From contig VBFO01000007.1 of the NCBI GenBank assembly GCA_005881025.1, positions 1-55,224 of the forward strand: DNA of 55,224 nucleotides, written 5' to 3'. The notes below the pieces were generated by a model, which ran no database searches, was not told where the DNA came from, and saw only the letters and a list, made by a program, of their open reading frames with translations. Source of the DNA: Chloroflexota bacterium (GTDB lineage: Bacteria; Chloroflexota; Dormibacteria; Dormibacterales; Dormibacteraceae). Of the stretch, positions 1,096 to 50,089 are shown in pieces (the stretch's first letter is position 1; every line of letters begins with the position of its first letter). Position numbers and translations under genes: made by a program.

Positions 1096-1104
1096 CTCGG
1101 ATCG

Positions 1105-3160: not shown

Positions 3161-3308
3161 GCAGGAAAGGGTACCGCCGGGACTTAGCACGGGGGAGGCA
3201 GGCCTCCCCCGTGGGACCCCCACCCTCCTCGCCACGACTGGGTGGCGCTTGGAAAGTGCACGCCGGCGGACGGCCGGAATGAATCCGGCCTGCTTGCGAC
3301 CCTAGCGT

Positions 3309-4289
3309 CTAGTCGTATGCGGGGTTGTCGACCGTCGCGTCGTAGAGGTAGGTGCCGCTGAAGGCCGTCCACTGCGGGGTGGAGATGCTGCAGCTCTTGG
3401 TCGTCGTGGTGCCGTGCGAGATGTCCGGCGAGATGGTCACCTTGCATGTGCCCAGCGAGCTCTGGTCAGCCTTGCTCGTGAGGGTGAAGGTCAGGACCGA
3501 CGGCGTGGACCCGGTCTTGGTGCCGCCCTTGTTGGCGATCACCGCCGAGATCACGCATGGGTCGTCGCAGCGGGACACGCTGATGGAGTTGACCGAGTAG
3601 TACGCGGGCCACGTGGATGGCTCGTCGATCTGCCAGACGTCGGTCGGCGCCGTGAGTCCAAAGCTCTTGCCGTAGTTGATGAACTCAAAGTCGCCGTTGC
3701 TCACGTCGGACACTGTCTTGCCAGGCTTGGTCTCCACCCGAACGAGGTGATAGGGCGATGCCTCGGTGATGTTCACGATCGTGTCGGACGTGGAGAGCTC
3801 TGCGGTGTCGGTGCCGTTGACGCTCACGTTGTCTTTCCGGCTGACGCCCAGGGTGTTCAGAAAGTTCGCCTTCACCTTTTGTGAGTCGGTGAACTGCGTA
3901 GTGTCGATCGGCGTCGCATCCTGGCTCGTGAACCACTTGTCGCCGACGGCGCGCGCCACCGATTGGCCGAACGGATCTGTGCCCACGGTGCTCGTCAGGA
4001 TGTCCTTGCTCTTGTAGTACGCCTTGCCCCCCACCTGGAGTAGCTCGAGATGGACCGCGTCCTGGTCGACCACCATGTCCGCGGCATCCGGCTTCTGGTA
4101 CTCGAGGTCGAACGTGTAGTTGTGTCCGCCAGTTGTGAATTTGCCCTTGACCTCGAAACCGGATGCGCTCGCCAGGTTGTCAGCGGCGCCGTTGATGAGC
4201 TGCGAGGTCGAGGCCTGACCGATACCGAAAGGAAGACCACAAGCGGTCGCCATCAATCCCGCCACCGCGGCGACTAGAAAATTGCGCAT
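3309..4289 (-). CDS. Secreted protein or lipoprotein of unknown function
   Basis: 326-aa ORF with a signal peptide MRNFLVAAVAGLMATAC|G (weak lipobox) and an SD-like gagggga upstream. Ser/Thr-rich, beta-rich sequence with a Cys-containing C-terminal domain. No family recognised. Confidence 0.55.
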   Translation of the reverse strand: MRNFLVAAVAGLMATACGLPFGIGQASTSQLINGAADNLASASGFEVKGKFTTGGHNYTFDLEYQKPDAADMVVDQDAVHLELLQVGGKAYYKSKDILTSTVGTDPFGQSVARAVGDKWFTSQDATPIDTTQFTDSQKVKANFLNTLGVSRKDNVSVNGTDTAELSTSDTIVNITEASPYHLVRVETKPGKTVSDVSNGDFEFINYGKSFGLTAPTDVWQIDEPSTWPAYYSVNSISVSRCDDPCVISAVIANKGGTKTGSTPSVLTFTLTSKADQSSLGTCKVTISPDISHGTTTTKSCSISTPQWTAFSGTYLYDATVDNPAYD

Positions 4290-4302
4290 CGAAAATCCCC
4301 TC

Positions 4303-4338
4303 TGAAAAAAAGAATGGCCCGGCGAGATGCCGGGCCAT
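4303..4338 (-). terminator. Intrinsic terminator immediately after coxM
   Basis: On the minus-strand RNA, a 9-10 bp stem AUGGCCCGGC-aucuc-GCCGGGCCAU is followed by UCUUUUUUU. It lies 9 nt downstream of the coxM stop and about 20 nt upstream of the lipoprotein start. Confidence 0.6.
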
Positions 4339-4346
4339 CCTACAGG

Positions 4347-5153
4347 CTATTGCGCCTGCTCGATAGCTCTTTTCGTCAACACCCTGGCGAGGTGCTTCTT
4401 GTATTCCGGGCTGGCGCGCAGGTCGCCGGCCGGGTTGAGGCCGTCGGATGCGTGCTGCGCCGCCTCCTCGGGCTTGGCGCCCTTCGCGAGCGCGTCCTCC
4501 ACCGCCTTGGCGCGCACCGGCGTCGGGCCGACATTGGTCAGGCCGACCCGCCAGTGACCGTCCACCTTCTGGGCTGCGGCTCCGACGATGGCCCAGTCGA
4601 ACAGGCGACGCCGGAACTTGATGTACTTGTGCGGCCCGTTGGCCACCGGGAACACGACCTCGGTGACTATCTCGTTGGCGGCGAGAGCCGTGGTGAAGAT
4701 GTCCTTGAAGAAATCGCGGGCCGGGATGGTGCGCTTGTTGGTCACGATGTCGGCGTCGAGCATCAGCGCGAGCGTGGGGTAGTCCCCCGCCGCATCGCCG
4801 TGCGCGATCACCCCGCCCATCGTGCCCATGTTGCGGACCTGGTTGTCACCCACCTCGGCTGCGACCTCCGCGAGGATCGGAAGCGATTCCTTGACCGTCT
4901 GCGAGCTATGAATCTGGACGTGCCGGGCGAGCGCTCCGACATGCAGCTTGGAGCCCTTGACCTCGATGTGATCGAGACCCTTGATGCCGTTGATGTCGAC
5001 CAGCGCCTTCGGCTGCGCCAGACGCAGGCGCATGAGCGGGATGAGGCTGTGGCCGCCGGCCAGCACCTTGGCGTCCTCGCCAAGCCTGTCCAGCAGCTTG
5101 ACCGCCTCGTCGACGGAGGAGGCCTTCGCGTATTCGAATGCGGCGGGGATCAC
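4347..5153 (-). CDS. coxM: Xanthine-dehydrogenase-family / CO-dehydrogenase-like medium subunit (FAD-binding)
   Basis: 268-aa ORF. FAD_binding_5 pattern (LAGGHSLIPLMRLRL). CO_deh_flav_C-like C-terminus. 4-nt overlap with the coxL stop. Confidence 0.9.
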   Translation of the reverse strand: MIPAAFEYAKASSVDEAVKLLDRLGEDAKVLAGGHSLIPLMRLRLAQPKALVDINGIKGLDHIEVKGSKLHVGALARHVQIHSSQTVKESLPILAEVAAEVGDNQVRNMGTMGGVIAHGDAAGDYPTLALMLDADIVTNKRTIPARDFFKDIFTTALAANEIVTEVVFPVANGPHKYIKFRRRLFDWAIVGAAAQKVDGHWRVGLTNVGPTPVRAKAVEDALAKGAKPEEAAQHASDGLNPAGDLRASPEYKKHLARVLTKRAIEQAQ

Positions 5154-7507
5154 TTGCGCGCCTCCTTGATCTGATTCCAGAGTCTGTCGGGCGTCGCCGG
5201 CATGTCCACATGCTTGATGCCGAGCGGCGAGACCGCGTCGCAGATCGCATTGATGATCGCGGCGGTGGCGGCGATGGTCCCAGCCTCCCCGATGCCCTTG
5301 ACTCCGAGCTCGTTGGTCGGGCTGGGCGTGATGGTCCGGTCGAGCTGGATGTTCGGGATCTCATTCATGGATGGGATCGTGTAATCGAGGAACGTCGCAG
5401 AGCGCAGCTGGCCATCCTGGTCGTAGACCATCTCCTCGTACAGTGCCTGCCCAATGCTCTGGGCGATGCCGCCATGCAGCTGGCCGTCCACGATCATCGG
5501 GTTGATGATGTTTCCGCAGTCGTCGACCGCGACGTACTTGGTGATCTGCGCGTTACCGGTCTCGGCGTCCACCTCGACGGCGCAGATGTGGGCGCCGAAC
5601 GGCCACACGAAGTTGGGCGGCTCGAAATAAGCCACCGCCTCCAACCCCTGCTCGAGCCCGGCAGGTAGCTGGCCGTACGCCGCGAAGGCAACCTCTCCAA
5701 ACGCCTTCGACTTGTCGGGCGCGCCCTTGACGTGGAACTTGCCCTGGTCGAAGACTATGTCCTCCTCAGCCGCCTCGAGGATGTGGGCCGCGACTTTCTT
5801 GCCCTTCTCGACCACCTTGGCGCAGGCGCGATTGATCGCGACTCCGCCCACCGCCAGCGTGCGGGAACCATAGGTGCCGTAGCCGAAGCCCGGCCCCTCG
5901 TTGGTGTCGCCGTGGCGGATGTCGATCTGTTCGATCGGGACGCCAAGCGCGTCGGCGGCGATCTGAGCGTGAGTCGTGTCGTTGCCCTGGCCGTGGTTGT
6001 GGGTGCCGACATAGATGCTTACCCCGCCGGCCGGGTGGACCTTGACCTGGGCCGACTCGGACAGCACCACGCCGCCGGTCGCCGGTCCGGTGACCGCGCC
6101 GGGCCCCAGGCCGCAGATCTCGATCCAGGTCGAAAGACCGATGCCGACGAGCTTGCCCTGCTTGCGGGCTTCCGCCTGCTCGCGCCGCATCTGGTCGTAG
6201 CCGAACAGCTTCAGCGCCTTGTCGAGGCTGGCGTTGTAATCGCCGGAGTCCATGACCAGCCCGAAGTTCTGCGTGAACGGGAACTCCTCTTTGGCGGGAA
6301 AGTTCTTGCGGCGCAGCTCGACGGGGTCCATCTTCAGCTCGACCGCGAGCAGATCGATCATCCGCTCCGCGACGTGGGTGGCCTCGGGTCGTCCTGCCCC
6401 GCGGTAAGGGTCGGTCGTGATCTTGTTGGTGAGCACGCCGATCGAGCGCGATGAGATGGCCTTCCACTTATAGGCGCCGCCCGCGAGCAGGCAGGCGCAT
6501 GTCTGGAAGGCTCCGAAGGTTCCGATGTAGGCGCCGCAGTCAAGCAGCTGGGTGACGCGCATGCCGAGGAGCGTGCCGTCCTTCTTGGCCGAGGCTTCTA
6601 CGTCATATATCTGTCCGCGGCCGGCGTAGGCGTTCTGCACCGCCTCGGTGCGGGTCTCGGTCCATTTGACAGGTCGCTCGACCAGCTTGGACACCGCCGG
6701 CACGAGGTAGTCCTCGGGGTAGGGGCTGATCTTGGAACCGAAACCGCCGCCGACGTCATGGGAGACGACGCGCACCGAGTGCTCGCCCATCCCCAGCGCG
6801 CCAGACACGAACAGCCGGATCCAGTGCGGGTTCTGCGTGGACATCCACATGGTCAGGCGCTTGTCGAACGGGTCGTACTCCGCCATGACGACTCGGCTCT
6901 CGATCGCGTTCGGCGATAGGCGCCGCTGGAGGATGCGCTGCTTGACCACGACGTCTGCGGTCTTGAAAGCTTCCTCGGTCGCTTCCCACGGAACGTAGGT
7001 CGCGTCCCAGGCGATGTTGTCGGGCTGGTCGGTGTGAGCCTTGGGGCTGCCCGGCTTCATCGCTTCCTCGATCTCCATCACCGCGGGCAGCGGGTCGTAC
7101 TCGACGTCGACAAGCTGGGCTGCGTCCGCAGCCTGGTAGCGCTGCTCGGCCACGACCACCGCGACCGGCTCGCCCTGGTAGCAGACCTCCTCGCGCGCGA
7201 TCGGATAGCGCGGTGGGTTCACCTTCTTGTCAGGAGCGAAAACAGGAGCCACCGGGTGGGTGGCCGGGCCGGCGATGATGTCCTTGAAGTCCTGGGCCGT
7301 GAAGACCCCCAGGACGCCGGGCGACTTCTTGGCCGCCTCGACTCCGATGCTCTTGATCCTCGCGTGCGCATGCGGGCTCCTGACCACCGCCAGATGGACC
7401 AGGCCGGTCCTCGTCAGGTCATCCGTGTAGCGCCCGTGTCCGGTGATGAGTCGCGGATCCTCGCGGCGATGGATCTTGGCTCCGACGAGCTGGGAGACCG
7501 CCATCAC
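5150..7507 (-). CDS. coxL: Molybdopterin-binding large subunit, form-II CoxL-like (xanthine dehydrogenase family)
   Basis: 785-aa ORF with aldehyde-oxidase/xanthine-DH a/b-hammerhead and MoCo domains. The active-site loop reads ...[13 protein letters not shown]..., the AYRGAGR type rather than the AYxCSFR of bona fide form-I CO dehydrogenase. Confidence 0.9.
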
Positions 7508-8019
7508 TCACCTCCCGCGGTGACTGCGGACCGGCCGGCGGTCGTAGACGCGCCGCCCATGACCTTGGCGGCCGACTGGACCGACTTGACGATGTTCACA
7601 TAACCGGTGCAGCGGCAGAGGTTCCCCTCGAGCCCGCGCCGGATCTCGTCCTCGGTCGGGTTCGGGTTCTGCTCTAGCAGGTAAGCGGCCGCCATGATGA
7701 AACCGGGCGTGCAGTAGCCGCACTGCAGCCCGTGCTCGTCCCAGAAAGCCTGCTGGATGGGATGCAGCTTGCCTTCCTTGGCCAGGCCCTCGATAGTGGT
7801 CAGGTTGCGGCCGTCCGCCTGGACGGCAAACATCGTGCAGCTCTTGATCGCCTTGCCGTCGACGTGGATCGTGCAGGCGCCGCACTGGCTCGTATCGCAG
7901 CCGATGTGCGTGCCGGTCAGGCCCACTACGTCCCGTAAGTAGTGCACGAGCAGCAGGCGCGCCTCGACCTCATGCTCGTGCTTCCGCCCATTGATGGTGA
8001 CTGCGACCTTGTGCTTCAT
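7504..8019 (-). CDS. coxS: [2Fe-2S] small subunit of the xanthine-DH/CODH family
   Basis: 171-aa ORF with two cluster motifs: [15 protein letters not shown] and LQCGYCTPG...CRCTGY. ATGA overlap with coxL. Confidence 0.9.
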
Positions 8020-8138
8020 CGGCTCCTCCCTAGCTAGCGGGTTGCTCCGTCAGAGCGCGGGACGGCGCCATCGAGCGCCTTTGCCTCGCAAAACCGAACC
8101 GTAACGAACTCTACTATTCGGCTACTTTTACAGTTGAA

Positions 8139-8735
8139 ATGCAACTGGAAAATTCATTCACGGTCACCGCGCCGCCGGAGCGGGTATTCGCGTACCTGCT
8201 GGACGTGAACAAGGTCGTCGGCTGCGTTCCCGGGGCCGAGCTGACGGAGGTCGTCGACGACACGACCTTCAAGGGCAAGGTCAAGATCAAGGTGGGCCCG
8301 ATCACCGTCGCGTACAGCGGAACAGCTCGCATCACCGGCAGGGATGACTCCGGGCACTCGGCCACCCTCGAAGCCGAGGGTAGGGAGACCACGGGCCAGG
8401 GCTCTGCCCGGGCGAAGGCCCTGATGGCGGTGACCGCGGATGGGGACGGCTCGATCGTTCGGATCACCACCGACTACACAGTCGCCGGCCGGGTGGCCCA
8501 GTTCGGCCGCGGAGTGATGGAGGACGTGTCGCGGCGCATCGTCAACGAGATGGCGAGCTGCATCAAAGCCAACGTCGAGGGCGCGAACCGTCCTGCCACG
8601 CCTGCGGCCGGATCAACTGGCCGGCAGGAAGAGCCGCCTCAGCAGGTGACCGCGCCGCCCATCAACGCGGTCTCCCTTTTCTTCCAGGTCCTGTGGACAG
8701 GGATCCGGCGCGCCTTGGGAGGAAGGCCGACCTAG
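8139..8735 (+). CDS. coxG: SRPBCC-fold CoxG-family protein
   Basis: 198-aa ORF. Typical CoxG start MQLENSFTVTAPPERVFAYLLDVNKVVGCVPGAE... Divergent from coxS. Confidence 0.8.
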   Translation: MQLENSFTVTAPPERVFAYLLDVNKVVGCVPGAELTEVVDDTTFKGKVKIKVGPITVAYSGTARITGRDDSGHSATLEAEGRETTGQGSARAKALMAVTADGDGSIVRITTDYTVAGRVAQFGRGVMEDVSRRIVNEMASCIKANVEGANRPATPAAGSTGRQEEPPQQVTAPPINAVSLFFQVLWTGIRRALGGRPT

Positions 8736-20432: not shown

Positions 20433-21468
20433 CCCGCCCGGCGAGCTGGTCGCGGCTCATCTGGTAGCCGATGCCGGCGCGGTACTCCCTGAACCCGAGC
20501 TTGTGGTTGATCGCAAGCATCGGTCCATTGGAGTTCGCGTTGCCGGTCGAGATCCACTCGACCTCCGGATAGCGACGATGGATCCGATCGAGCATCAAGG
20601 CCTTGATCCACTTGCCGATCCCCCGACCGCGCGTCTCCGGCCGCACACCCGTGAACATCTGCTCCACGATCGTGGGTCGATGCGGCGCCCAGGCCACGTC
20701 GGTCATGCCTGAGATGGTGCCGTCAGGCTCCCTGGTCAGGACGAGGTGGTGGACCTCTTGCAAGAGGTCCATGCGCTCGTACCAGTTGCGGAGCTGGGCG
20801 GCGGTGATCACCACCTCGCCGTGGTCCAGGTCGTCGAACGGCATCGTGTTCAGCAGGGCCGCCAGCTGTGGAGCAAACTCGTCCCACATCGACTCGGGAG
20901 GATGGTCGTCGTAGACCTCGAGCTTGGTGTGGGGCGAGCGGACCGGACCATCGTCGATCCAGCTCTGAACCATCTGCCAGTCCACGTCCGCCAGTCGCAG
21001 GCGGTTCTCGGCACCCCAGATCTTGGGCTCCGCGCCGAGCCACTTCAGGAATTCGTGGCCGGAGTCCTCCTCGGCGTCGCAGCTGAGGACTGTGCATCCA
21101 TGCCTGTCCATGAGCTCGAGCACCAGCGGCAGCCATGACCTTCCGATCCCTTGCCTCCGGTGATCGCGTCCGACCTCGGCCATCGCCTCGAAGAGGTGAT
21201 GGTTCTGTTCATAGCCGGGAGCTCCGGGCTTGACGCTGGTGGCCGTGAACCAGCTCAGCATCCGACCGCCATCGGAGATCTCGTAACGATGGATGATGTC
21301 GAAAGGCCGCTCGTGCTTCATGTACTGCTCTTCGAGCTCGTCCGGGCGAACGGGATCGTCCGGCCGCGTCTCGGCGTGGCGCTCATGCCGGAAGGCGTGG
21401 TAACGCCGCCAGAAATCGGCATCAGCGGAATTCGGGTCCACCTCGACAGGTACCAGGTTTTTGACCAT
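20404..21468 (-). CDS. Tandem-GNAT N-acetyltransferase
   Basis: Two acetyl-CoA-binding-type motifs, RRQGIGRSW and TRGRGIGKWI, in a 354-aa protein. An alternative GTG start lies at 21441. Confidence 0.75.
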   Translation of the reverse strand: MVKNLVPVEVDPNSADADFWRRYHAFRHERHAETRPDDPVRPDELEEQYMKHERPFDIIHRYEISDGGRMLSWFTATSVKPGAPGYEQNHHLFEAMAEVGRDHRRQGIGRSWLPLVLELMDRHGCTVLSCDAEEDSGHEFLKWLGAEPKIWGAENRLRLADVDWQMVQSWIDDGPVRSPHTKLEVYDDHPPESMWDEFAPQLAALLNTMPFDDLDHGEVVITAAQLRNWYERMDLLQEVHHLVLTREPDGTISGMTDVAWAPHRPTIVEQMFTGVRPETRGRGIGKWIKALMLDRIHRRYPEVEWISTGNANSNGPMLAINHKLGFREYRAGIGYQMSRDQLAGRVRTLAGRSV

Positions 21469-22234
21469 GCCTGAGGATCATCCTCCCACAACCGATGGCG
21501 AGCGCCGATTCAAGGTCGGGGTCACCATCCATCCGCAGCAGTGCACCATCACCGAGCTGCGCGATGCGTGGCGGAGAGCCGATGAGCTCGGGGTGGACAG
21601 CATCTGGTTCTGGGACCACTTTTTTCCTCTCTATGGAGACCCCGAAGGCAATCAGTTCGAGTGTTGGTCCCTCCTCGCGGCAGCTGCCATTGACACGCGG
21701 GCGCCGCAGATCGGGCCGATGGTCAGCGCCATCGGCTATCGCAACCCGGACCTGATCGCTTACATGGCAGGGACGATCGACCAGTTGTCGGGCGGACGCT
21801 TCGTGCTGGGGCTGGGCGCCGGATGGTTCGAGCGCGATTACACCGAGTATGGATTTCAGTTCGGAGAGGTTCGCGATCGGCTGCGGACCTTGAAGCAGGC
21901 ATTGCCGAGGATCCGGGCGCGTGTCGACCGGCTGAAGCCGGGGCCCGCGGGGCGGATGCCGATCCTCATCGGCGGTGGCGGCGAGAAGGTCACGCTGCGG
22001 CTGGTGGCAGAGCATGCGCAGATGTGGAACGCGCTCGGCTCGCCAGACGAGTACGCCCGGAAGTCCGAGATCCTCGACGGGTACTGCCGGCAGATCGGGC
22101 GCGATCCGAAGGAGATCGAGCGCACGGCCAACGTCACGCTGCGCTCAGATAGGGAGATCGACGAGTGGCTGGAGGCGGGACTCCAGCATTTCGTGCTGCG
22201 GCGTTCGACACCAAGCAGCTGGAGAAGGTGCTGA
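21461..22234 (+). CDS. LLM-class (luciferase-like) F420-dependent-type oxidoreductase
   Basis: FKVGVTIHPQQ...ELGVDSIWFWDHFFPLYGDP...GRFVLGLGAGWFERDYTEYGF. Start is the TTG at 21461 or the ATG at 21467. The 3' end may be frameshifted (see findings). Confidence 0.8.
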   Translation: MTMPEDHPPTTDGERRFKVGVTIHPQQCTITELRDAWRRADELGVDSIWFWDHFFPLYGDPEGNQFECWSLLAAAAIDTRAPQIGPMVSAIGYRNPDLIAYMAGTIDQLSGGRFVLGLGAGWFERDYTEYGFQFGEVRDRLRTLKQALPRIRARVDRLKPGPAGRMPILIGGGGEKVTLRLVAEHAQMWNALGSPDEYARKSEILDGYCRQIGRDPKEIERTANVTLRSDREIDEWLEAGLQHFVLRRSTPSSWRRC

Positions 22235-22431: not shown

Positions 22432-23791
22432 CTACGCCGCCTTGACCGCGGTAACCAGCTTCGTCAGCGAGTCCTTCGCGTCCCCGAAGAACATGATCGT
22501 TTTCGGGTCGTACATCAGGTCGTTGTCTATGCCTGCAAATCCCGGGCGCATCGACCTCTTCATGAACACGATGTTCTTGGCCTGGTCGGCATTCAGGATC
22601 GGCATGCCATAGATCGGACTGCCCGGCGATGATCGCGCCGCCGGGTTGACAACGTCATTCGCGCCCACCACGAGCACGACGTCTGCGTCCCTGAACTGGT
22701 CGTTGATCTCGTCCATCTCCTTCAGCTGCTCATAGGGCACGTTGGCCTCAGCCAGCAGCACGTTCATGTGCCCCGGCATCCTTCCAGCCACGGGATGGAT
22801 TCTCGAGCAGGTCCGCCAGCTCGCGGACCGCGTGCTGCGCCTGCGCCACCGCCAGCCCATAGCCCGGCACGATGATCACGCGCCGCGAGTAAGCGAGCAA
22901 GGTGGCGAGGTCCTCGGCGGAGCCGGCGCGGACAGAACGCGCCTCTTTTCCGCCCGCGGCGGCCGTGCCTGTCCGCACCTTGCCGAACGCGCCGAACAAC
23001 ACATTGCCGAGGGACCTGCCCATGGCGTCGCTCATGAGCTTGGTCAGCAAGCTACCTGACGCTCCAACCAGGGTCCCCGCGACGATCAGCGCGAAGTTGT
23101 TCAGCGTGAAACCGCTGGCCGCGACCGCAAGGCCGGTGAACGCGTTTAGAAGTGAGATCACCACCGGCATGTCGGCGCCACCAATCGGCAGCACGAACGC
23201 GACGCCAAGGATCAGCGCGAGCACCATCAGCGCGACGAAAGAGAACGGGATCGATGCGATCACCAGCACTGCGACGACAAATCCGATGATCAGCGCCGCG
23301 AGGAGCCCGTTCACCAGTTGCTGGCCCGGATAGGTGATCGGGGTCCCGGTCATCAGCTCCTGCAGCTTGGCGAACGCGACCATGCTGCCCGCGAACGAGA
23401 TCGACCCGATCACGATGCTGAACACGCTCGGGAACGCCTCTGCGAACGGTGGGCGGGTACCGAAAGTCAGCAGCTCTGACACCGCCACCAGCGCCGCCGC
23501 CCCACCGCCCACGCCATTGAACAGGGCGACCATCTGCGGGATCGCGGTCATCTTCACCATCCGCGCTCCAAAGGCTCCGATCAACGCGCCGACGGCGACG
23601 CCTACGCCGATGATCACCAACCCGGCCGTCGTGAAATGCAGCAACGGCAGCGTGGCTCCGAGCGCGATCACCATGCCCGCCGCAGCGGTGAAGTTGCCGT
23701 TCCGGGCGCCCTTCGGCGAGCTCAGCTGCTTGAGGCCGAGGATGAACAGCACCGCGGCCATTAGATAGGCGAGAGCGATCGCGAGATTCAT
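22432..23791 (-). pseudogene. pntB: NAD(P) transhydrogenase subunit beta, reading frame broken by an internal deletion
   Basis: ORF 22748..23791 encodes the TM domain plus ...VIIVPGYGLAVAQAQHAVRELADLLE. ORF 22432..22860 encodes, in another frame, [33 protein letters not shown]...GDAKDSL. The two parts meet at about 22801. Confidence 0.75.
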
Positions 23792-24099
23792 CTGGTTGCG
23801 GTCGACTTGGGTGCCGCGGCTCGTCCTTTGAACATCTCCAGCATCCGGTCGGTGACCACGAATCCGCCCACCACGTTCGTGGTGGCGAGGATCACCGCGA
23901 CCAGTCCCAACGCGATGGTCAACGGCGAGTCCGCGCCGGCGGCGATGACGATCGCGCCGACCAGGATGATGCCGTGGATGGCATTCGTGCCCGACATCAG
24001 TGGGGTATGCAGGATGGTTGGCACCTTGGAGATGACCTCGATGCCGACGAAGATCGCAAGCACGAAGTAGGTGACCTCGGTCAGCAGCTCGTTGCTCAT
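23788..24099 (-). CDS. pntAB: NAD(P) transhydrogenase subunit alpha part 2 (membrane)
   Basis: 103 aa from the ATG at 24099 (MSNELLTEVTYFVLAIFVGIEVISKVP...). ATGA overlap with pntAA and 4-nt overlap with pntB. Confidence 0.85.
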   Translation of the reverse strand: MSNELLTEVTYFVLAIFVGIEVISKVPTILHTPLMSGTNAIHGIILVGAIVIAAGADSPLTIALGLVAVILATTNVVGGFVVTDRMLEMFKGRAAAPKSTATR

Positions 24100-25229
24100 G
24101 AGGCCGCGGCCAGCAGTTGCTTCGCGCGCTCGCTCACTATCTCGCCGCCATGAGTCACGCACGCGCCCTTGGTGATCTCGTCTTGGAAATCGAGGTTGAT
24201 CGCTCCGTCTTTCACCAGGTGCAGCAAGAGATTGGCGACGTTGCGTGCATAAAGCTGGCTGGCGTGCAGCGGCATCGTGGACGGAACGTTGCGCGTGCCG
24301 ATGATCAGGACGCCGCCAACATCCGTGTCCTTGCCGGCCTGAGTCAGCTCGACGTTTCCCCCTGACTCCGCCGCGAGGTCGACGACCACGGATCCTGGAC
24401 GCATGCCTCTCACCATGTCCGCAGTCACCAGCAGTGGGGCGCGGCGCCCAGGTACGGCGGCAGTCGTGATCACGACGTCGGACTTGGCGATGTGCTCGCC
24501 GATCAGCTCTCGCTGCTTGCGGAGAAACTCCTCGGACTGCTCGCGTGCGTATCCGCCCTCACCTTCCTGCGCCTCCAGAGCCAGCTCGATGAAGGCGGCG
24601 CCGAGGGACTGCACCTCTTCTTTCACGACTGGGCGCACGTCGTAGGCGGAGACGACCGCTCCCAACCGGCGCGCGGTGGCGATCGCCTGCAGGCCCGCGA
24701 CTCCCGCGCCCATGACCAGCACCCGCGCCGGAGCCACAGTGCCGGCCGCGGTCATCATCATCGGGAAGAACTTCCCCAGCCGCTCCGCCGCCATCAGCAC
24801 GGACTTGTAGCCCGCAGCCGAGGCTTGAGATGAAAGCGCGTCCATCGACTGCGCGCGCGAGATGCGTGGTACGAGCTCGAGGCTGAAAGCCGTAACGCCC
24901 TGCTTGGCGAGCGCTCGCACGATGTCGGCCTGTGTGGCGGGCTGCAGGAAGCTGACCAGGACCGCGCCCGCTCTCACCAGCCCCGCCTCTGCCACCGAAG
25001 GCGCCTGGACCTTCAACACCGCGTCCGCGTCGCGCAGCAGATCCGATATGCCACCGACGACGCGCACCCCCGTGGTCCGGTAAGCCTCATCGGACAGGTA
25101 GGCGGCTGCACCGGCGCCCGCCTCGACGCTGACCTGGAGGCCGGCCGCGATCAGCTTGGTGGCGGTGTCCGGGACCAGGGCCACGCGGCGCTCATCCGCC
25201 GCGGTCTCTTTGGGGGTCGCAACCTTCAC
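24096..25229 (-). CDS. pntAA: NAD(P) transhydrogenase subunit alpha part 1 (AlaDH-like dI domain)
   Basis: The GTG at 25229 gives MKVATPKETAADERRVALVPD... Rossmann motif VMGAGVAGLQAIATARRLGA. The ORF-track start at 25313 would abut korA. Confidence 0.85.
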   Translation of the reverse strand: MKVATPKETAADERRVALVPDTATKLIAAGLQVSVEAGAGAAAYLSDEAYRTTGVRVVGGISDLLRDADAVLKVQAPSVAEAGLVRAGAVLVSFLQPATQADIVRALAKQGVTAFSLELVPRISRAQSMDALSSQASAAGYKSVLMAAERLGKFFPMMMTAAGTVAPARVLVMGAGVAGLQAIATARRLGAVVSAYDVRPVVKEEVQSLGAAFIELALEAQEGEGGYAREQSEEFLRKQRELIGEHIAKSDVVITTAAVPGRRAPLLVTADMVRGMRPGSVVVDLAAESGGNVELTQAGKDTDVGGVLIIGTRNVPSTMPLHASQLYARNVANLLLHLVKDGAINLDFQDEITKGACVTHGGEIVSERAKQLLAAAS

Positions 25230-35415: not shown

Positions 35416-36771
35416 TGTCGACCTTCGGGTGATGTGTCACGGAGCTACTTCGGGTGATGTGTCGCACTTCGTCTGAATCTATCTCCTCCGGGGCGCCGTG
35501 CTGTCGGCATGCAGTTTGCGGACAGGGCCCTTGCTGGTTCGAGCCACCGTCTTGAGCAACTCGTTGCCCACCCAGAACTGAAGCAGGCCGTCCGTCACGA
35601 GCACATCGCAGGCGCTGCCACCGAAGTGTTTGCCCACGCTGACCTGCTGGTAGCCGACGCTCACGAGTCCATTGCTAGCCACCCTTCGGCTGACCCACTG
35701 CTCGCCATTGCGCTCGGGCCGCGGAGTCAGGCGATGCCGCGGCTGGTCGTCGCCGGCATGGAAGCGGCTCTCCGGGGTGGCGTCGAACAACCCCTGATGC
35801 GGACGCTGGGTGTTGTAGTAGCTAACCCATTCGTTCAGCGCCTCCTGTGCTGTCTTCAAGGTCTTGAAGACCTGCCGAGTGTCGAACTCGACTCGAAGGG
35901 TCTTGTGAAAGCGCTCGATCTTTCCGGTCGTGGTCGGCGAGCGCGGCTGGGTCAGGATGTGGTCGACACCGTTCTCGCGACAGATGCGGTCGAACAGCAC
36001 CTCGACCGGCGGTTGTGCGAAGCGGCCGGTGAAGACCTTTCCGTTGTCGGTCAGGACCTGGGCAGGCAGACCATAGGTATTCAGAGCTGAACTGAACCCG
36101 TCGCAGACCGACTGGGTTCGCTCCCTGGCCATTAGCCTCGCCGAGACGCAGTACCTCGAGTGGTCGTCAACGCCGGTCAGCGCCTTGGCTGAGGTCCCGT
36201 CAGCCAAGAGAAAGCCATGGACTAGGTCGAACTGCCAGAGCTCCATCGGCGCCCCTCTCTCCCAGCGCTTCCAGGTTTCCCGCCGCCTCTGTCGGCTGAT
36301 GGGGTCGATGACCGCAGCTCGGACCAGGCAGCGATAGACAGCTGACTCCGAGGGCGCGGCCTCGACCCGCTTGCGCGCCAACTCAAAGGCGATTCGGCGC
36401 GCTCCCCAGTAAGGGCGTGACCGGCGCATCTCGAGCACCATCGCCTCCACTGCCGCCGGCATCTGATGCGGGCTTTGGGCCGGCCGGTGCGACCGATTGT
36501 TCAAGCCTTCGAGTCCGTCACCCTCATAACGCAACAGCCACCGGTGCATCGTTCGCCTGGACACGCCCCAGTCGGTAGCCACCTCGCTCACTGTCCGACC
36601 ATCGCCAATTACTGCCAGGACCGCCTTGTACCTCTGCTCAGTCACGCTCATCTCCCTCATGCGCGGGAGCGTGACAAATCAGCCGAAGTAGGTGTGACAC
36701 ATCAGCCGAAGGCGTGTGACGCATCAGGCGAAGGCCTTTTGGGACCTATCAGCCGAACTTGCACAACGTAA
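35416..36771 (-). mobile_element. IS481-family insertion sequence (about 1.35 kb)
   Basis: Single transposase ORF. Imperfect terminal IRs: left tgtcgaccttcgggtgatgtg, right (rc, from 36765) tgtgcaagttcggctgatagg. Multiple subterminal 18-nt repeats GTGAC(A/G)NATCAG(C/G)CGAAG: 36671-88, 36694-711, 36716-33, a partial copy at 36744-58, and inverted copies at 35423-40 and 35449-66. The exact ends are uncertain. Confidence 0.75.
35479..36660 (-). CDS. IS481-family transposase (HTH plus DDE/integrase core)
   Basis: 393 aa. N-terminal HTH (SVTEQRYKAVLAVIGDGRTVSEVATDWGVSRRTMHRWLLRYEGDGLEGL). rve core (WQFDLVHGF...TDNGKVFTG...). C-terminal YNTQRPHQGL. Confidence 0.9.
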   Translation of the reverse strand: MREMSVTEQRYKAVLAVIGDGRTVSEVATDWGVSRRTMHRWLLRYEGDGLEGLNNRSHRPAQSPHQMPAAVEAMVLEMRRSRPYWGARRIAFELARKRVEAAPSESAVYRCLVRAAVIDPISRQRRRETWKRWERGAPMELWQFDLVHGFLLADGTSAKALTGVDDHSRYCVSARLMARERTQSVCDGFSSALNTYGLPAQVLTDNGKVFTGRFAQPPVEVLFDRICRENGVDHILTQPRSPTTTGKIERFHKTLRVEFDTRQVFKTLKTAQEALNEWVSYYNTQRPHQGLFDATPESRFHAGDDQPRHRLTPRPERNGEQWVSRRVASNGLVSVGYQQVSVGKHFGGSACDVLVTDGLLQFWVGNELLKTVARTSKGPVRKLHADSTAPRRR

Positions 36772-43552: not shown

Positions 43553-44746
43553 TTACTGCGAGAACAGGGTCACGTCCTTCAGCTCGAAGCTCACGATGCC
43601 GTCGGCGCCGACGACGAACAGATCGACAGGAGCGAACCCACCGGTTTGTGGATATGCCGGGTCTAGCACGCCGATTGCAATTTGCGAGCCGCCCGGCTCG
43701 GCGAACGATCCCCAGTAACCAAAGGTGCTGTCTGGGCACGTCCAGATCGTCTGCCCGTCACTCCAGTTGACGATGCTCGGCGACTGCGCGCCACCGATCT
43801 GGGCCGCGACCACCAGGGCCCCATCCAACGAGAAGCCAAAGACCTCGCCCTCGAGCCGCTTGAGCACCGCTCCGCCAGGCCCGTATATGACGGTGTGGCC
43901 GGATCCGTCCGCCAAGGCGACGTACCTGCCGTCGTGGGATGCGGCGATGTAGCCACCAACTCCACCGGTCCACAACGTTCGACCGCTGGACAGCTGAACG
44001 ACCCAGAACTGCATGACTCCGATGCCCTGGCCGCCCGACTGATACACGACCGCGCGGTCACCGCCTGGGCTGCAAGCGACGACCGACGGCCCGCCGCCGT
44101 CGTGGCTGGCCGGCTTGAAGCTACCTACCCGCGCCACGTTTCTCGGGGATTTGCCCACCTCGGTGAGCTGGAGCTCTCCCGGGCTGCTCATATCGCGTGA
44201 GGCGGTGCGCACCACAGAGCAGTAGCTTCGACCGTCGTCCGACCAGAACACGCCCACATTTATCGGATCGAAGGTGGCCAGCACCGCGCCGTGGCGATCT
44301 CGGATTTCGTTGGAAGCGGCGTACAGAGTGCCTTGCGGGTTGGGGATGCCGCCGTTGGCGGCGCCCGTGCCGATCCTGCCAGATGTCTTGCCGTCCCAGG
44401 TGACGCCGTCGACCTGGTCGAAGTTAGCCGGGTCGTGATAGACGATCACTGGGGTCGAGTCGGAGACGTTCAGCGCGTTCTGGAGCGGAGTCGGTGAGGC
44501 GCTGGCCTTGGGCGTGGTGCCCGGCACCGTCTGGGGATGGATGTTCCCTCGCACCAGCGCGAAGGTGCCGATCACGAGCGCCGCGATCAGGACGGCGGCG
44601 ATGCCTGCGGCCCACTGGACGCGGCGGCTCACCGACTCCCGGGCCGCGAGCCCATCCTGCATGAGACGGTGACGCGCGTCGCCGACCTCACCGAGCTTCG
44701 CTTGCTGCCGGTCGAAGCCGCCACGAATGTCGTCACGGAGAGTCAT
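43553..44746 (-). CDS. Putative anti-sigma / sensor protein: short cytoplasmic N-terminus, one TM segment, extracytoplasmic beta-propeller-like domain
   Basis: Start overlaps the ECF sigma stop (TGATG). TM segment WAAGIAAVLIAALVIGTFALV. The C-terminal 300 or so aa are Gly/Ser/Val-rich with repeated ...DG..VA...G... blades (TolB/WD40-like). Confidence 0.5.
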   Translation of the reverse strand: MTLRDDIRGGFDRQQAKLGEVGDARHRLMQDGLAARESVSRRVQWAAGIAAVLIAALVIGTFALVRGNIHPQTVPGTTPKASASPTPLQNALNVSDSTPVIVYHDPANFDQVDGVTWDGKTSGRIGTGAANGGIPNPQGTLYAASNEIRDRHGAVLATFDPINVGVFWSDDGRSYCSVVRTASRDMSSPGELQLTEVGKSPRNVARVGSFKPASHDGGGPSVVACSPGGDRAVVYQSGGQGIGVMQFWVVQLSSGRTLWTGGVGGYIAASHDGRYVALADGSGHTVIYGPGGAVLKRLEGEVFGFSLDGALVVAAQIGGAQSPSIVNWSDGQTIWTCPDSTFGYWGSFAEPGGSQIAIGVLDPAYPQTGGFAPVDLFVVGADGIVSFELKDVTLFSQ

Positions 44747-45267
44747 CAGATGTCCTCCTCGAGGAGTCCCGGCCTCAAGCGCTTGCAGGCGCGGTAGATG
44801 CGGCCCTTGGCAGCGGCGCCGGAGATGCCCAATGCAGTCCCTATCTCATCGACGGAGAGATCGAGGTAGAAGCGCATGAACAGCACCTGCCGGTCGGCCA
44901 TCGGCAATTTTTCGAGCTCGCGCTCGAGGTCCAGCCGCTCGACGTGAGACTCGGCGGGCTTTCCCGGCTGGAACACCAAGGGAATGCGCACCGTGCTGAA
45001 CCACCTCGTCCGGCGCACGTTCCGGCACTGGTTGGCGACGATCGCCAGGAACCACGGCCGGACCTGGCTCCGGTCGCGCAGCCGCGACAGGCTGCGCCAG
45101 GCCTTGGTGATCGCGTCCTGAGTCGCGTCCTCGGCCTCCGAGCGGTTGCCGAGCATCGAGAACGCCAGCCGGAGGCCAGGCTCGACGAGCGGCCCGATCA
45201 GGGCTTCGAACTCCTGCTCGGCCTCCCGGGCCGGCTCGGCGGTCATGGCGTGGACCACATCATTCAA
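44746..45267 (-). CDS. ECF-type RNA polymerase sigma-70 factor
   Basis: Region 2 (DATQDAITKAWRSLSRLRD...PWFLAIVANQCRNVRR) and region 4 (LPMADRQVLFMRFYLDLSVDEIGTALGISGAAAKGRIYRA). Confidence 0.85.
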   Translation of the reverse strand: MNDVVHAMTAEPAREAEQEFEALIGPLVEPGLRLAFSMLGNRSEAEDATQDAITKAWRSLSRLRDRSQVRPWFLAIVANQCRNVRRTRWFSTVRIPLVFQPGKPAESHVERLDLERELEKLPMADRQVLFMRFYLDLSVDEIGTALGISGAAAKGRIYRACKRLRPGLLEEDI

Positions 45268-45297
45268 GACACCCGAAACCAGCCGCCGGTTACACGG

Positions 45298-46587
45298 TCA
45301 GTCGAAGAGCTTGCGGCCCCGGGTCACGAACTGGTCCCGGCGGGGCCCAGTGCCTACGAGCTCGATCGGCGTGGCTATGAGCTCGCCGACCCGTTCGATG
45401 TAGTCGCGGCACTGGGCGGGTAGATCGTCCCAGCACTTGGCGGCTCCGATCTCCGACTGCCACCCTGGCATCTCGTCGTACATCGGCTCGCAGTGCTTGT
45501 AATGGGAGATGTTCGCGAGCGGATGGTCGTGCACCTGGCCACGGAATCGGTAGCCGGTGCAGATCTTCAGGAGCGGCTGGTCGTCGAGTATGTCGAGCCG
45601 CATCAGGGCTGCGACGCTGACGCCGTTAAGGCGGCAGGAGTAGCGAGCGACCGCGGCATCGAACCACCCGATACGTCTTGGGCGCCCGGTGACGGTGCCG
45701 AACTCGTGCCCGCGCTCGCGGATCTGGTCCCCCACGTCGTCGGTGAGCTCGGACGGAAAGGGCCCGTAGCCGACGCGCGACGTGTAGGCCTTGAACACGC
45801 CAATCGTCAGGTCAACCTTGGTCGGAGGGATGCCACTTCCGGTGAGCGCGCCGCCGGCGCTGGGGTTGGAGCTGGTGACGTATGGATAGGTTCCAAAGTC
45901 GAGGTCGAGCATGGTCGCCTGGGCCCCCTCGAGGAGGATGTTGGCCTTCCGGTCCAGCGCTTCCTGGATGAGTGGGAATGTGTCCTTGATGTAGGGGTCG
46001 AGCTGCTTCGCGTACCCCATGTACTCGCCGACCATGCTTTCCCAGTCGTAGGGCTCGCCGCCATAGAGCTTGGTCAGGATCGGGTTCTTGACCTGGTCGA
46101 CCACGAAGGCGAGCTTCTTGCGCATGAAGCCTTCCTTCTGGAGGTCGCCGATGCGAAAGCCGATGCGCCTCACTTTGTCCGCGTAGGCGGGGCCGATTCC
46201 GCGCCAGGTGGTACCGAGGCGGTCGTCGCCGCGGACCTCCTCCTCGAGCTGGTCGAACAGCGGGTGGTAGCGCATGACCATGTGCGCTCGCTCGCTGACG
46301 ATGAGGTTCTTCGGCTCGATTCCGCGCTCGCGCAGCTGCGTGATCTCTTTCAGAAGCACTATCGGGTCGACCACCACGCCGTTGCCGATCACGCATGTGC
46401 ACTGCGGGTAGAGGATCCCCGACGGGATGAGCTGGAACTTGAACTCGCCGTCCTCGGTGATGACGGTGTGCCCGGCGTTGTTGCCGCCCTGGGACCGGAT
46501 GACCATGTCCGCTTTGGCCGCGAGGTAGTCGATGACCTTGCCTTTGCCCTCGTCGCCCCACTGGCCGCCGACCAGGATGATGACCAC
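45298..46587 (-). CDS. purA: Adenylosuccinate synthase
   Basis: MVIILVGGQWGDEGKGKVIDYLA..., GNNAGHTV, TTWRGIGPAY. GTG start with SD agaggaag. Confidence 0.95.
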   Translation of the reverse strand: MVIILVGGQWGDEGKGKVIDYLAAKADMVIRSQGGNNAGHTVITEDGEFKFQLIPSGILYPQCTCVIGNGVVVDPIVLLKEITQLRERGIEPKNLIVSERAHMVMRYHPLFDQLEEEVRGDDRLGTTWRGIGPAYADKVRRIGFRIGDLQKEGFMRKKLAFVVDQVKNPILTKLYGGEPYDWESMVGEYMGYAKQLDPYIKDTFPLIQEALDRKANILLEGAQATMLDLDFGTYPYVTSSNPSAGGALTGSGIPPTKVDLTIGVFKAYTSRVGYGPFPSELTDDVGDQIRERGHEFGTVTGRPRRIGWFDAAVARYSCRLNGVSVAALMRLDILDDQPLLKICTGYRFRGQVHDHPLANISHYKHCEPMYDEMPGWQSEIGAAKCWDDLPAQCRDYIERVGELIATPIELVGTGPRRDQFVTRGRKLFD

Positions 46588-46799
46588 TGGTCTTCCTCTT
46601 ACTCCGTGCCCGGCTCGGGGCGCCTCGTCTCCAGGTTGTAGAAGCGGGTGTGGTCCCGGCGGAACTTGAGCTCGATCATGCCGGTCGGGCCATTGCGGTG
46701 CTTGGCGACGATGACCTCCGCGATGCCAGGCCTCTCATCAGCCTTGTAGTACTCAGGCCTATAAAGAAACATCACGGGATCTGAATCCTGCTCGATGCT

Positions 46800-46832
46800 G
46801 TTGTGGACCACCAAGTCGTTCGCAACGAAGTT
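46800..46832 (-). other. 11-codon C-terminal relic of a second DnaB intein (NFVANDLVVHN)
   Basis: It reads NFVANDLVVHN directly followed by SIEQD. Compare the Synechocystis DnaB mini-intein C-terminus ...HNFVANDIIVHN|SIEQD (from memory). Confidence 0.7.
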
Positions 46833-47329
46833 TCGCGGAGGTCACTCAGGATTGGTCGTTTGTCCGGGCGTTGCTCGGGTGCACGGCTCAGCTGTGAGAT
46901 GGCGATCACAGGGATCCTGAGCTCTCGAGCCAGCCCCTTCAGTGCTCGGGAGATTGATGAGACCTCCTGAACGCGGTTGTCGTCCCCGCGCGAGCGGCCA
47001 TGCATCAGCTGCAAGTAGTCGACCAGGATCATGTCGATGCCGTGTCGCATCTTTGCCTGTCGGGCCTTGAGCTGAAGGGTCAATTCATCCATGACCGGCG
47101 TGTCGTCGATGTAGATCGCAGCCTCGCCAAGCGGCCCGAGCGCATTGGACACACGATCGAACTCGGACTCTGTCAAAAGCCCTCTGTGCAAGCGCTGGGC
47201 GTCGATTTGGGCCTGCTCTGTCAGCAGGCGTTCGGTGAGCTGTTCCTTCGACATCTCGAGGCTGAAGATGGCGATCGACTTCTTCGTTTCAAGTGCGGCA
47301 TGCAGCCCGATGTTGAGAGCGAGAGAAGT

Positions 47330-48549
47330 GTTGTGGACGAGGATGTCCTGCGCCACGAAATTGCCAGTCTCTGGAACCGCGAGGTCATAAACCTGGTGCT
47401 CGCCGGTAGGGATGATCGAAACGACCTCATCCCAATAGATCTGGTCACTGGCTAGCTGCGAAAGGCGGCGGTCGCGCAGGACGTCGGCGTAATTCGCAAG
47501 CCGGCCTTGTGTGATGCCCCGGGACCGATGCGGATTGAAGCCACGAAGACCGGCGCCTCTTTCGCCCGCAAGGACTGAGAGTTGTGTGACGGTCAGGCCG
47601 CGAGCGTGAGCTGACGCGCGAATGTCTTCCCAGATCTGTGGTGGGACTTGACCAATGTTGCTGGGTCGCGGCTCGGTGAATGACTTGAAACGGTTTGCCT
47701 TCTCATCTCCCTTTGGTAGCGCTCAACCGAAGCCGGCTCCGTGATCTCAACTCGCCAGCACCGATCCTTCTTCTTCCACAGCTTCGCGACGATTCCGAAG
47801 CGGACGAGAGCATGGTGAAGGTCTTCCGCGAGACCCTGGGATGCGACCGCGAACTCAATTCGCGGATAGCCACCCAATGAATACACAGTTCCATCGCAGC
47901 TCATGAGGGTCTTGATGAACTCAAGCAATCTCGAACGGTCCCAACGCCAGGCGCACTCGGGAAACCGCTTGGCATCGGACAGCTTGCCCATGAGGCCAAA
48001 TTCGCGCAGCCACTGAGCCAGCGGGTTCTTGAGGCGACCGCCTGTACGTGGCCCGGCAGAGTAGTACGTGATGCGGTGCCGTCTGACGTGAAGAGTCGGA
48101 AAGTGGCGCGAGATTTGGTCCATGAAGTCGCCGACAAGAACTGGATCAGAGTTCGTAAAGCCCGGCGTAGCCGCGGTCAGGCTGCCTTCGGCGATGAAGT
48201 AGGCGAGCAGTCGAACCTGTCCGAAGTCCATTGAACCGTCTGTGCCAAAGCAGTTGACTGCGCGCGGCACCGCGATCCGATCACCAATGACGATGTCGTG
48301 CAGCGGTTGCCATCCTGTAACCGTGAGAAATGGGTGGTGGCCTGTCACTTCGACGGAACGACCGGTGCGCGTCGTGACCTTGAAGCAGGGTTTGACGCCG
48401 CTGTCGACCCATGCGCCGATTTCGTTTGGTTTGATGCGCCCGTCCCAGGAGAAACCGTGGATTCTGGGTAGCTGTCGCTCGACTGCGTCCTGGATTGTCA
48501 GACGCTCGCCCGTGGCAATATTGATAACAAGACTATCATACTTTAGGCA
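47330..48549 (-). mobile_element. DnaB intein with a LAGLIDADG homing-endonuclease domain, inserted in the Walker A loop (GK|T)
   Basis: Block A CLKYDSLVINI, block B VTGHHPF, LAGLIDADG-like LLAYFIAEGSL and FIKTLMSCDGTVY, blocks F/G IYWDEVVSIIPTGEHQVYDLAVPETGNFVAQDILVHN, then Thr. Length is 1220 nt, which is not divisible by 3. Confidence 0.85.
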
Positions 48550-49218
48550 CTTACCCATCGCGGGTCTTCCCGCGACGATGATCAGGTCCGAGTCCTTGAA
48601 CCCGCCCGTCATCCGATCCAGGTCATGGAACCCTGACGGAACGCCGATGACTCCCTGACCGCTCTCCATCTGCAGCGAGATCCGCTCCATCGCCGGACCG
48701 AGCAGGTCATAAAGCTTGGCCAGCTCGCGCTGGTCGCGGTCGTCCGCGACACCGAACACGAGCGACTGCGCCTGGTTGATCGCCTCCTCGGCTTCGACCG
48801 AGTCGTCGTAACCGAACCCGGCGATGTTGCCCCCCGCCGAGATCAGACGCCGCTTGTAAGCCTTCTCCTTGACGATGCGGCCGTAGTACTCGATGTTGGC
48901 CGCGGTCGGGACCGACCCCTGCATCGACGCGAGCTGAGCGCGGCCGCCCACGCGTTCGAGCAAACCCATCCCCTGCAGCTGTGACGCGAGCGTGACGTTG
49001 TCGATCGGCTCTCCGGCCGCGAACAGGTCGAGTGCCGCCCGATAGATCTGGCCGTTGTTCTCGCGATAGAAGTCCTCGGGATGAAGGAACTGGAGGACCT
49101 TGGCAATCGACAGCGGATCGAGAAGGATGGACCCGAGCACGGACATCTCCGCGTCAAGGTCGTGCGGTGGCACCCTTCCGGGTGTTAGTGCGATGGTCGC
49201 CATCGAGCTCTGTCGGCC

Positions 49219-49668
49219 CTAGCGGTCCTGGGTCACGATCAGGTTGACGTGGGCGGTCACATCCCGATGAAGCTTGAGTGGAACCTGGTGCTCACCAAGG
49301 GTCTTGATGGGTTCCCTGATGTCGATCTTGTGCCGGTCGATGTCGACCCGGTGCTGGGCCTTGAGGGCGACGGCCACATCCTGGTTGGTGATGGAGCCGA
49401 ACGCCTTGTCCTCGGCTCCGATCTTCAGACGAACAACAACCGTCTTGTTGCCGATCTCGTCCGCCAGCGCCTGAGCCTCCACCCTGTCCTTCGTCTCGCG
49501 TCGGCTCACAGCCTCGCGCAGACGCTTGGACTCGGTTTCGACACCCCGAAGCGCCGGCACCGCCAGCTTGCGCGGAAACAGGAAGTTGCGACCATAGCCG
49601 TCGGCGACCTCCTTGATGTCACCGGCCTTGCCGACGTTGTCTATGTCCTTGGTCAGCATCACGCGCAC
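49219..49668 (-). CDS. rplI: 50S ribosomal protein L9
   Basis: The GTG at 49668 gives MRVMLTKDIDNVGKAGDIKEVADGYGRNFLFPRKLA... Conserved rplI-dnaB synteny. Confidence 0.9.
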   Translation of the reverse strand: MRVMLTKDIDNVGKAGDIKEVADGYGRNFLFPRKLAVPALRGVETESKRLREAVSRRETKDRVEAQALADEIGNKTVVVRLKIGAEDKAFGSITNQDVAVALKAQHRVDIDRHKIDIREPIKTLGEHQVPLKLHRDVTAHVNLIVTQDR

Positions 49669-49672
49669 GTCC

Positions 49673-50089
49673 CTAGCCCTCCGCCACCGATGGATATGAA
49701 TCGTCTGCAACTCCGCCCGCGATCCGTCTTCTCACTCGCCTGACCACCCTTCTGGTCCCGTGGCGGGCGGCCGCGACAGTATCTCGGAGGTCGTGATCGA
49801 ACATGCTGTCCTTCGCGCTCAGCGAAGCCAGATGCTCACGGCGAATTTCCTCTGGACACGCTTCGATGAACGTCTGAACAGCAAGCAGCCCGAGCGCGAG
49901 CATGTCCAGCTCACCCAGCACTGGGATCCAGGCCGGGAAGTCGATAGGGCTGACGATGACCGCCAGGGCCGCCAGCAGAACCGCCTTCGGAGCTGCCGGC
50001 ACGCGATCGTCGCGCAGCAGGCAGTAGGCGAGCTTGCCGTGTTTCGGCACCTCCACCAGAACCTGCATGGCACGCGAAATGAAAGGCAT
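49673..50089 (-). CDS. DUF1232 (YkvA-like) membrane protein
   Basis: ...AVLLAALAVIVSPIDFPAWIPVLGELDMLALGLLAVQTF... Confidence 0.7.
   Translation of the reverse strand: MPFISRAMQVLVEVPKHGKLAYCLLRDDRVPAAPKAVLLAALAVIVSPIDFPAWIPVLGELDMLALGLLAVQTFIEACPEEIRREHLASLSAKDSMFDHDLRDTVAAARHGTRRVVRRVRRRIAGGVADDSYPSVAEG

Follow-up and report, generated by a model that had tools for sequence, protein, structure and literature searches.

The dnaB gene of this contig is interrupted, and the question it raises is whether the interruption belongs to the organism or to the record. In the window, that is, the whole stretch of 55,224 nucleotides analyzed (contig VBFO01000007.1, positions 1 to 55,224), dnaB is located at 49203..46599 on the minus strand, to which all features of the gene described below belong, and is flanked by rplI (49219-49710) and purA (45298-46587). 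The gene as recorded has 2605 nt (1 mod 3), and its translation makes use of all three frames. The N-extein (48550..49203) comprises the N-terminal domain, the linker and, as far as the P-loop (...GRPAMGK), the first portion of the RecA-like domain, as seen in the translation and in the matches to Pfam DnaB (PF00772) and DnaB_C; the first part of the C-extein (TSLALNIG...ILSDLRE; 46833..47329), also delimited by translation and Pfam, is in a second frame; and its last part (SIEQDSDPVMF...PEPGTE and the stop codon; 46599..46799) is in a third frame, with a private Leu-to-Pro change inside. In the frame-repaired product, Pfam detected the DnaB, DnaB_C, Intein_splicing (E 3.9e-20) and LAGLIDADG_3 (E 8.9e-12) profiles.

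The relatives of the window dnaB come from MAGs of Candidatus Dormibacterota and from contigs of soil metagenomes, the closest protein (P0001) having 91% identity, and the locus, with the gene order rplI-dnaB-purA, is an ordinary chromosomal dnaB of a soil species of Candidatus Dormibacterota. In the naming used for DnaB inteins, the P-loop is site b and motif H4 includes sites a and c (PMC4760082; PMC6195587). The H4 insertion is here provisionally assigned to site a; sites a and c are two residues apart, and it takes the published alignment to separate them. The related loci carry no intein, an intein at b only, at a only, at b with a mini-intein at a, or at b with a full-length intein at a. 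Accordingly, the DnaB proteins have 452 aa when free of inteins and about 861 aa when the P-loop intein alone is present; those with both inteins have either about 995-1035 aa or 1270-1290 aa.

The P-loop (site b) intein, with its LAGLIDADG homing-endonuclease domain, occupies 47330..48549. The N-extein ends in ...IIVAGRPAMGK; Cys1 is at 48549-48547; and the intein ends in ...NFVAQDILVHN at 47330, followed by TSLALN, with Thr+1 read from 47329. The insertion lies between Lys and Thr, and its excision restores the GK/T of the Walker-A motif and the DnaB_C match. Block A (CLKYDSLVINI; 48517..48549) includes the Cys1 nucleophile, and block B (GRSVEVTGHHPFLT, with TxxH inside; 48322..48363) was placed by alignment to the Npu and Ssp DnaB inteins, with whose block B the segment VEVTGHHPFLT lines up. 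Two LAGLIDADG-like motifs with conserved acidic residues are situated between the Hint halves and delimit a putative endonuclease; the first (LLAYFIAEGSL; 48178..48210) keeps its Glu, and the second (EFIKTLMSCDGTV; 47884..47922), within the Pfam LAGLIDADG_3 stretch, keeps its Asp. Blocks F and G (IYWDEVVSIIPTGEHQVYDLAV...NFVAQDILVHN; 47330..47440) are legible in the second frame only. Among solved structures, the element most resembles the Npu and Ssp DnaB mini-inteins (PDB 4o1r, 6frg, 1mi8; E 1e-20 to 7e-19); it matches them over two separate segments, one for each half (N- and C-terminal) of the Hint domain. The Intein_splicing match exceeds the Pfam curated cut-off.

Since Cys1, TxxH, the two LAGLIDADG-like motifs, HN/T and the DnaB-intein matches are all present, the intein call is sound, and the element is, to judge from its sequence, a canonical class-1 intein with LAGLIDADG motifs in the Walker-A loop of DnaB. 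The sequence-only reading had described an intein in the dnaB P-loop from which splicing regains GK/T, and this is borne out by translation, Pfam and the PDB mini-intein matches; the blocks that it proposed agree with the alignment to the Npu and Ssp DnaB inteins at both ends, and the two LAGLIDADG motifs that it listed are present. It was also correct that the segment has 1220 nt, not a multiple of 3, and that the ORF 47593..49203 shares its frame with the N-terminal part and not with the C-terminal part (KGDEKANRF...ILVHN). A continuous frame with the exteins is absent in this record, where a 13-nt deletion breaks it, and present in the same-species contig L172 (GCA_001917445.1, MNDY01000236.1), whose allele of the intein has 1233 nt and encodes 411 aa.

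In host protein and Walker-A insertion point, the intein described here agrees with Mycobacterium smegmatis DnaBi1 and with the DnaB intein of M. leprae, and in this intein, as in other site b inteins, the +1 residue doubles as the Ser/Thr of the P-loop (PMC6195587; PMC4760082). A Thr at +1 has been described for the DnaB of Demetria terragena (Novikova et al. 2016, PMC4760082). On the other hand, M. smegmatis DnaBi1 is a class-3 mini-intein without endonuclease (PMC6195587), whereas the present one is assigned to class 1 by its Cys1, has the full LAGLIDADG complement and belongs to a Dormibacterota host.

The first break of the frame is at 47704..47705, inside this intein. It had been attributed to a one-base indel by a ccctttgg run near 47700-47720; alignment showed instead a deletion of 13 nt (CGGTTGGATTGGC lost) at 47704/47705, which shifts the frame and eliminates the conserved IGWIG. 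The junction reads GGGAGAT/GAGAAGG on the minus strand, and the 13 nt absent from the window appear in the alignment as GAGAT[CGGnTGGATnGGn]GAGAAG, so that the invariant E-IGWIG-EK is removed. The deletion was judged against 16 sequences, eight of them from distant intein-bearing relatives and eight from contigs of the same species. A single-base homopolymer sequencing error, as first proposed, would gain from the fact that one base added to an AAA run reopens the frame; however, 13 nt are missing in the alignment to the 16 relatives, the frame repaired in this way still lacks the invariant IGWI, about 50 other genes of the window show no single-base frameshifts, and the gene has a second break that corresponds to a loss of 373 nt. 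We regard such an error as highly implausible. A one-base repair of both breaks is ruled out by the aligned losses of 13 and 373 nt, and an error-prone long-read assembly by the lack of single-base frameshifts in the other genes.

The second break, overlooked in the sequence-only reading, is located 872 nt downstream of the 13-nt deletion, at 46832..46833. There, the frame passes from ...ILSDLRE to NFVANDLVVHN/SIEQDSD, the third frame, at 46832/46833, and the 373 nt lost comprise the extein Ser-Gly together with residues 1-122 of a mini-intein, of 133 aa in full, inserted in motif H4. What remains of this mini-intein are its last 11 residues, NFVANDLVVHN (block G; 46800..46832), a stub that agrees residue for residue with the 3' end of the complete mini-intein carried by L172 and by another contig of the species, L092 (Ga0209474_10015578). 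Inteins of 133-431 aa occupy motif H4 (RESG/SIEQD) in 22 related loci, and the 133-aa form is complete in L092, L172, L171, L161 and L162. The exact 33-mer spanning the 373-nt junction had 0 matches in the metagenome contigs. A private T-to-C change at 46777, 55 nt from this junction, replaces Leu by Pro (IEQDSD-P-VMF) at a residue that is V, L, I or M in all 138 related loci and in 196 of 197 proteins.

The H4 intein is, we presume, inserted at the same RESG/SIEQD position as the Ssp DnaB intein. The Ssp and Npu DnaB mini-inteins (PDB 1mi8, 4o1r, 6frg) end in NFVANDIIVHN, a near-match to the NFVANDLVVHN found here. M. smegmatis DnaBi2 and the M. tuberculosis (Mtu) DnaB intein are likewise at site a, in motif H4; DnaBi2 bears an endonuclease, in contrast to the 133-aa mini-intein of the present species, of which the record keeps block G only. 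The layout of P-loop and H4 insertions is the same as in the two-intein DnaB (sites a and b) of Actinobacteria and Cyanobacteria (PMC4760082; PMC6195587), although in M. smegmatis the mini-intein and the endonuclease-bearing intein are at the sites opposite to those observed here (PMC6195587). A dnaB whose P-loop carries an endonuclease intein and whose H4 motif carries a mini-intein is, then, an already known kind of object. From this anatomy, an intact gene would encode a 996-aa precursor with a 411-aa class-1 intein in the P-loop (GK/C...HN/T) and a 133-aa mini-intein in H4 (RESG/C...HN/S), and both would have to splice out to yield a 452-aa helicase.

An exact-protein look-up with the L9, sigma factor and PntAB sequences of the window found 23 further contigs of the same species. 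Among the same-species contigs (98-99% identical), eight of eight retain the 13 nt and five of five retain the 373 nt; both dnaB deletions are private to this record. L092 aligns to window positions 49767..44154 with 97.8-99.2% identity; it retains the 13 nt and has an intact 133-aa mini-intein exactly at the 373-nt gap of the window, and it presents an out-of-frame deletion of its own, of 14 nt, in the FGTDGS region of the P-loop intein (L092:1505-1525, corresponding to window 48236-48249). The union of the window and L092 has 2991 nt in one ORF of 996 aa. L172 encodes an uninterrupted DnaB of this same length, composed of the 411-aa P-loop intein, the 133-aa H4 mini-intein and 452 aa of extein, which differs from the window/L092 union in four residues. 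The earlier claim that the helicase cannot be made thus stands for the record as written and fails for the organism, since the species has this uninterrupted allele and the gene is under purifying selection.

The evidence for selection comes from the codon differences in dnaB between the window and L092, 30 of which are synonymous and five non-synonymous; 23 and four of these, respectively, are in the P-loop intein, the endonuclease domain included. This synonymous excess shows that dnaB and its intein are under purifying selection in the species. A long-standing pseudogene is excluded by this ratio.

It could be supposed that the gene is expressed despite its breaks, either by programmed -1 frameshifting or with its pieces joined by trans-splicing as a split intein. 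The break in natural split inteins falls near the site at which the endonuclease is inserted, and an ATG follows the 14-nt lesion of L092, two points that favor a split intein. Against both forms, the second break removes the extein Ser-Gly at H4 and leaves an 11-residue intein stub that cannot splice, and the lesions are conserved in no relative. No X_XXY_YYZ slippery heptamer was found in either frame-overlap zone, which leaves programmed -1 frameshifting unsupported; nor does the downstream frame contain an ATG, GTG or TTG between 47722 and 47356, upstream of block F, which speaks against a naturally split intein with its own start for each piece. We give very little credit to expression across the breaks.

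A more serious alternative is that the deletions are real and that the record holds a dead or decaying dnaB allele, be it a recently inactivated copy beside a functional helicase gene, a defective copy tolerated in a polyploid cell or the DNA of non-viable cells; its lesions might have arisen where recombination or homing joined DNA in the intein region. In favor of this alternative, three private lesions are gathered in 930 nt, namely the 13-nt deletion, the 373-nt deletion and the Leu-to-Pro change at a conserved site. However, dN/dS between strains is far below 1, which indicates that the gene is selected in the species, and an intact allele exists at 98-99% identity. The interrupted gene is, besides, at the canonical rplI-dnaB-purA site, no second dnaB was found in the window, and only one of 79 Dormibacterota MAGs has two dnaB loci.

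This MAG, SMAG_U2064 (DASVEP01; loci L039 and L080), is the sole one with two dnaB among 80 genome loci, and it has a copy with the H4 intein only and a copy with the P-loop intein. The pair could reflect either a bin in which strains are mixed or a genuine second copy.

In the P-loop intein of the window, a block of 305 nt (47710..48014; reference nt 1190 to 1494) has 23 private substitutions, mostly synonymous, with about 7.5% divergence, at sites where the seven or eight other contigs available mutually agree. The 3' edge of this block coincides with the 13-nt deletion, and further downstream the window resumes the common haplotype, which places the deletion at a haplotype switch. Such a switch is compatible with a dead allele as well, since the deletion at the haplotype boundary could be the end of an imprecise recombination.

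The dnaB gene of this species is a hot spot of assembly breakpoints. Nine of the ten contigs anchored on an identical L9 end inside dnaB, while eight of the ten extend at least 5 kb upstream; two of these L9-anchored contigs have N-runs within dnaB. The N-run of L162 starts at most 5 nt from the 14-nt deletion of L092, and two contigs, L163 and L164, stop at a distance of 20-50 nt from the 3' edge of the gap of 373 nt in the window. Our explanation for the hot spot is that strains with different intein contents and alleles occur together. Among the 160 related contigs compared, nine have a frame break in dnaB, and such breaks are also seen in about 1-5% of the flanking genes (purA, 1/123; rplI, 2/126; others, 2/47 to 3/56).

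Lesions of the same type were found elsewhere in the window. When about 50 other genes were scanned with Pfam, all presented full-length profile matches except pntB, the transhydrogenase beta subunit gene (22435-24133, minus strand), which is in two pieces (profile positions 2-330 and 339-455). It has a private out-of-frame deletion of 26 nt at 22800/22801 and, in comparison with Thermus thermophilus PntB (4o9u_B), lacks nine residues. A luciferase-like oxidoreductase gene (21461-22234, plus strand) has a private 10-nt deletion at 22201/22202 that changes its last 20 residues or so. Both genes, pntB with 461 aa, are intact in six same-species contigs. A sister scaffold, L175 (ERZ28573540 scaffold_225), differs from the window by three mismatches over 6.3 kb; it shows 10 consecutive N precisely where the oxidoreductase gene of the window has lost 10 nt and, at the pntB site, a different lesion, of 5 nt, beside a run of six G. 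The four private out-of-frame deletions of the window fall two by two, with 600 nt between the members of one pair and 872 nt between those of the other, a pattern expected of short contigs scaffolded between collapsed gaps. The presence of such lesions in unrelated genes, with a matching N-run or a different lesion in the sister scaffold, also weighs against a dead dnaB allele, which we consider unlikely, though worth keeping in view.

We therefore propose that the frame breaks are most likely artefacts of assembly or scaffolding, with a probability of roughly 0.78, a mechanism that we infer from the assembled contigs and not from reads. At a polymorphic locus that is hard to assemble, short contigs would have been abutted and the intervening gaps collapsed, with the loss of 13 and 373 nt; read in this way, the deletions would not be mutations of living cells. 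This proposal is supported by the intact allele in L172, by the private character of the lesions and by the purifying selection; by the haplotype switch at the 13-nt deletion, the breakpoint hot spot in dnaB and the like lesions in pntB and the oxidoreductase gene; and by the pairing of the lesions and the background of frame breaks in about 1-5% of the flanking genes. Some observations count against an artefact. The junctions have little or no microhomology, and De Bruijn assemblers rarely make junctions that lack read support; moreover, the private Leu-to-Pro change is at a site that is otherwise V/L/I/M in all related loci. For the private character of the lesions, by contrast, there is the weak evidence that the peptides of the out-of-frame tails had no match among 5.8 billion proteins, a set in which clustering at 90% identity may hide truncated members.

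Other contigs of the species have dnaB lesions of their own. L161 and L163 present distinct 1-nt deletions in the dnaB exteins (L161:7825 and L163:5801; dnaB reference nt 2369 and 345) and no indels in the 5.4 kb of upstream flank, and the flank of L092 is likewise free of frame lesions. The names of L161 and L163 have the 'k141_' style, which we take to indicate MEGAHIT, and L092 is a JGI contig. Lesions proper to L161, L163 and L092, from other assemblers and with a clean flank, would also fit real recurrent damage, and the fact that dnaB frame lesions differ among same-species contigs, with none in the 5.4 kb upstream, is in accordance with a dead allele too. If taken further, dnaB would be a hot spot of recurrent, independent out-of-frame lesions, all of them real; five of the contigs examined do carry five different dnaB lesion sets. 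Their source might be junctions left by intein recombination or homing, and multiple genome copies or another replicative helicase might allow cells to tolerate them. We find it improbable that all the lesions are real, and continue to prefer an artefact of assembly.

The locus adds a Dormibacterota example to the helicases with P-loop and H4 inteins, with the endonuclease intein in the P-loop and under purifying selection. Intein-bearing genes that vary between co-occurring strains, by presence or absence or by mosaic endonuclease alleles, are sites at which metagenome assemblies break. The main value of the case is one of caution, as frame breaks at such loci should lead to no inference of pseudogenes or recoding unless reads support them.

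Three in-frame deletions, of 111, 81 and 93 nt, distinguish L171 (VBGX01000108.1) from L172, at L171 positions 1829, 5566 and 6895. They affect the endonuclease domain of the P-loop intein, a hypothetical protein and an AlkZ-like glycosylase, three genes within 10 kb, and all are multiples of 3, which would be odd for an artefact.

In the window, an IS481-like transposase gene (rve, HTH_32, LZ_Tnp_IS481; 35482-36678, minus strand) is included in a stretch of lower GC (about 62%) at 34-40 kb, and L175 ends, by coordinate arithmetic, at about window position 35469, right at this element. The region 130-8735 encodes a carbon-monoxide dehydrogenase-type cluster composed of XdhC/CoxI, a CoxE-like VWA protein, an AAA ATPase, FAD-binding, molybdopterin and 2Fe-2S subunits, and CoxG, all with full-length Pfam matches.
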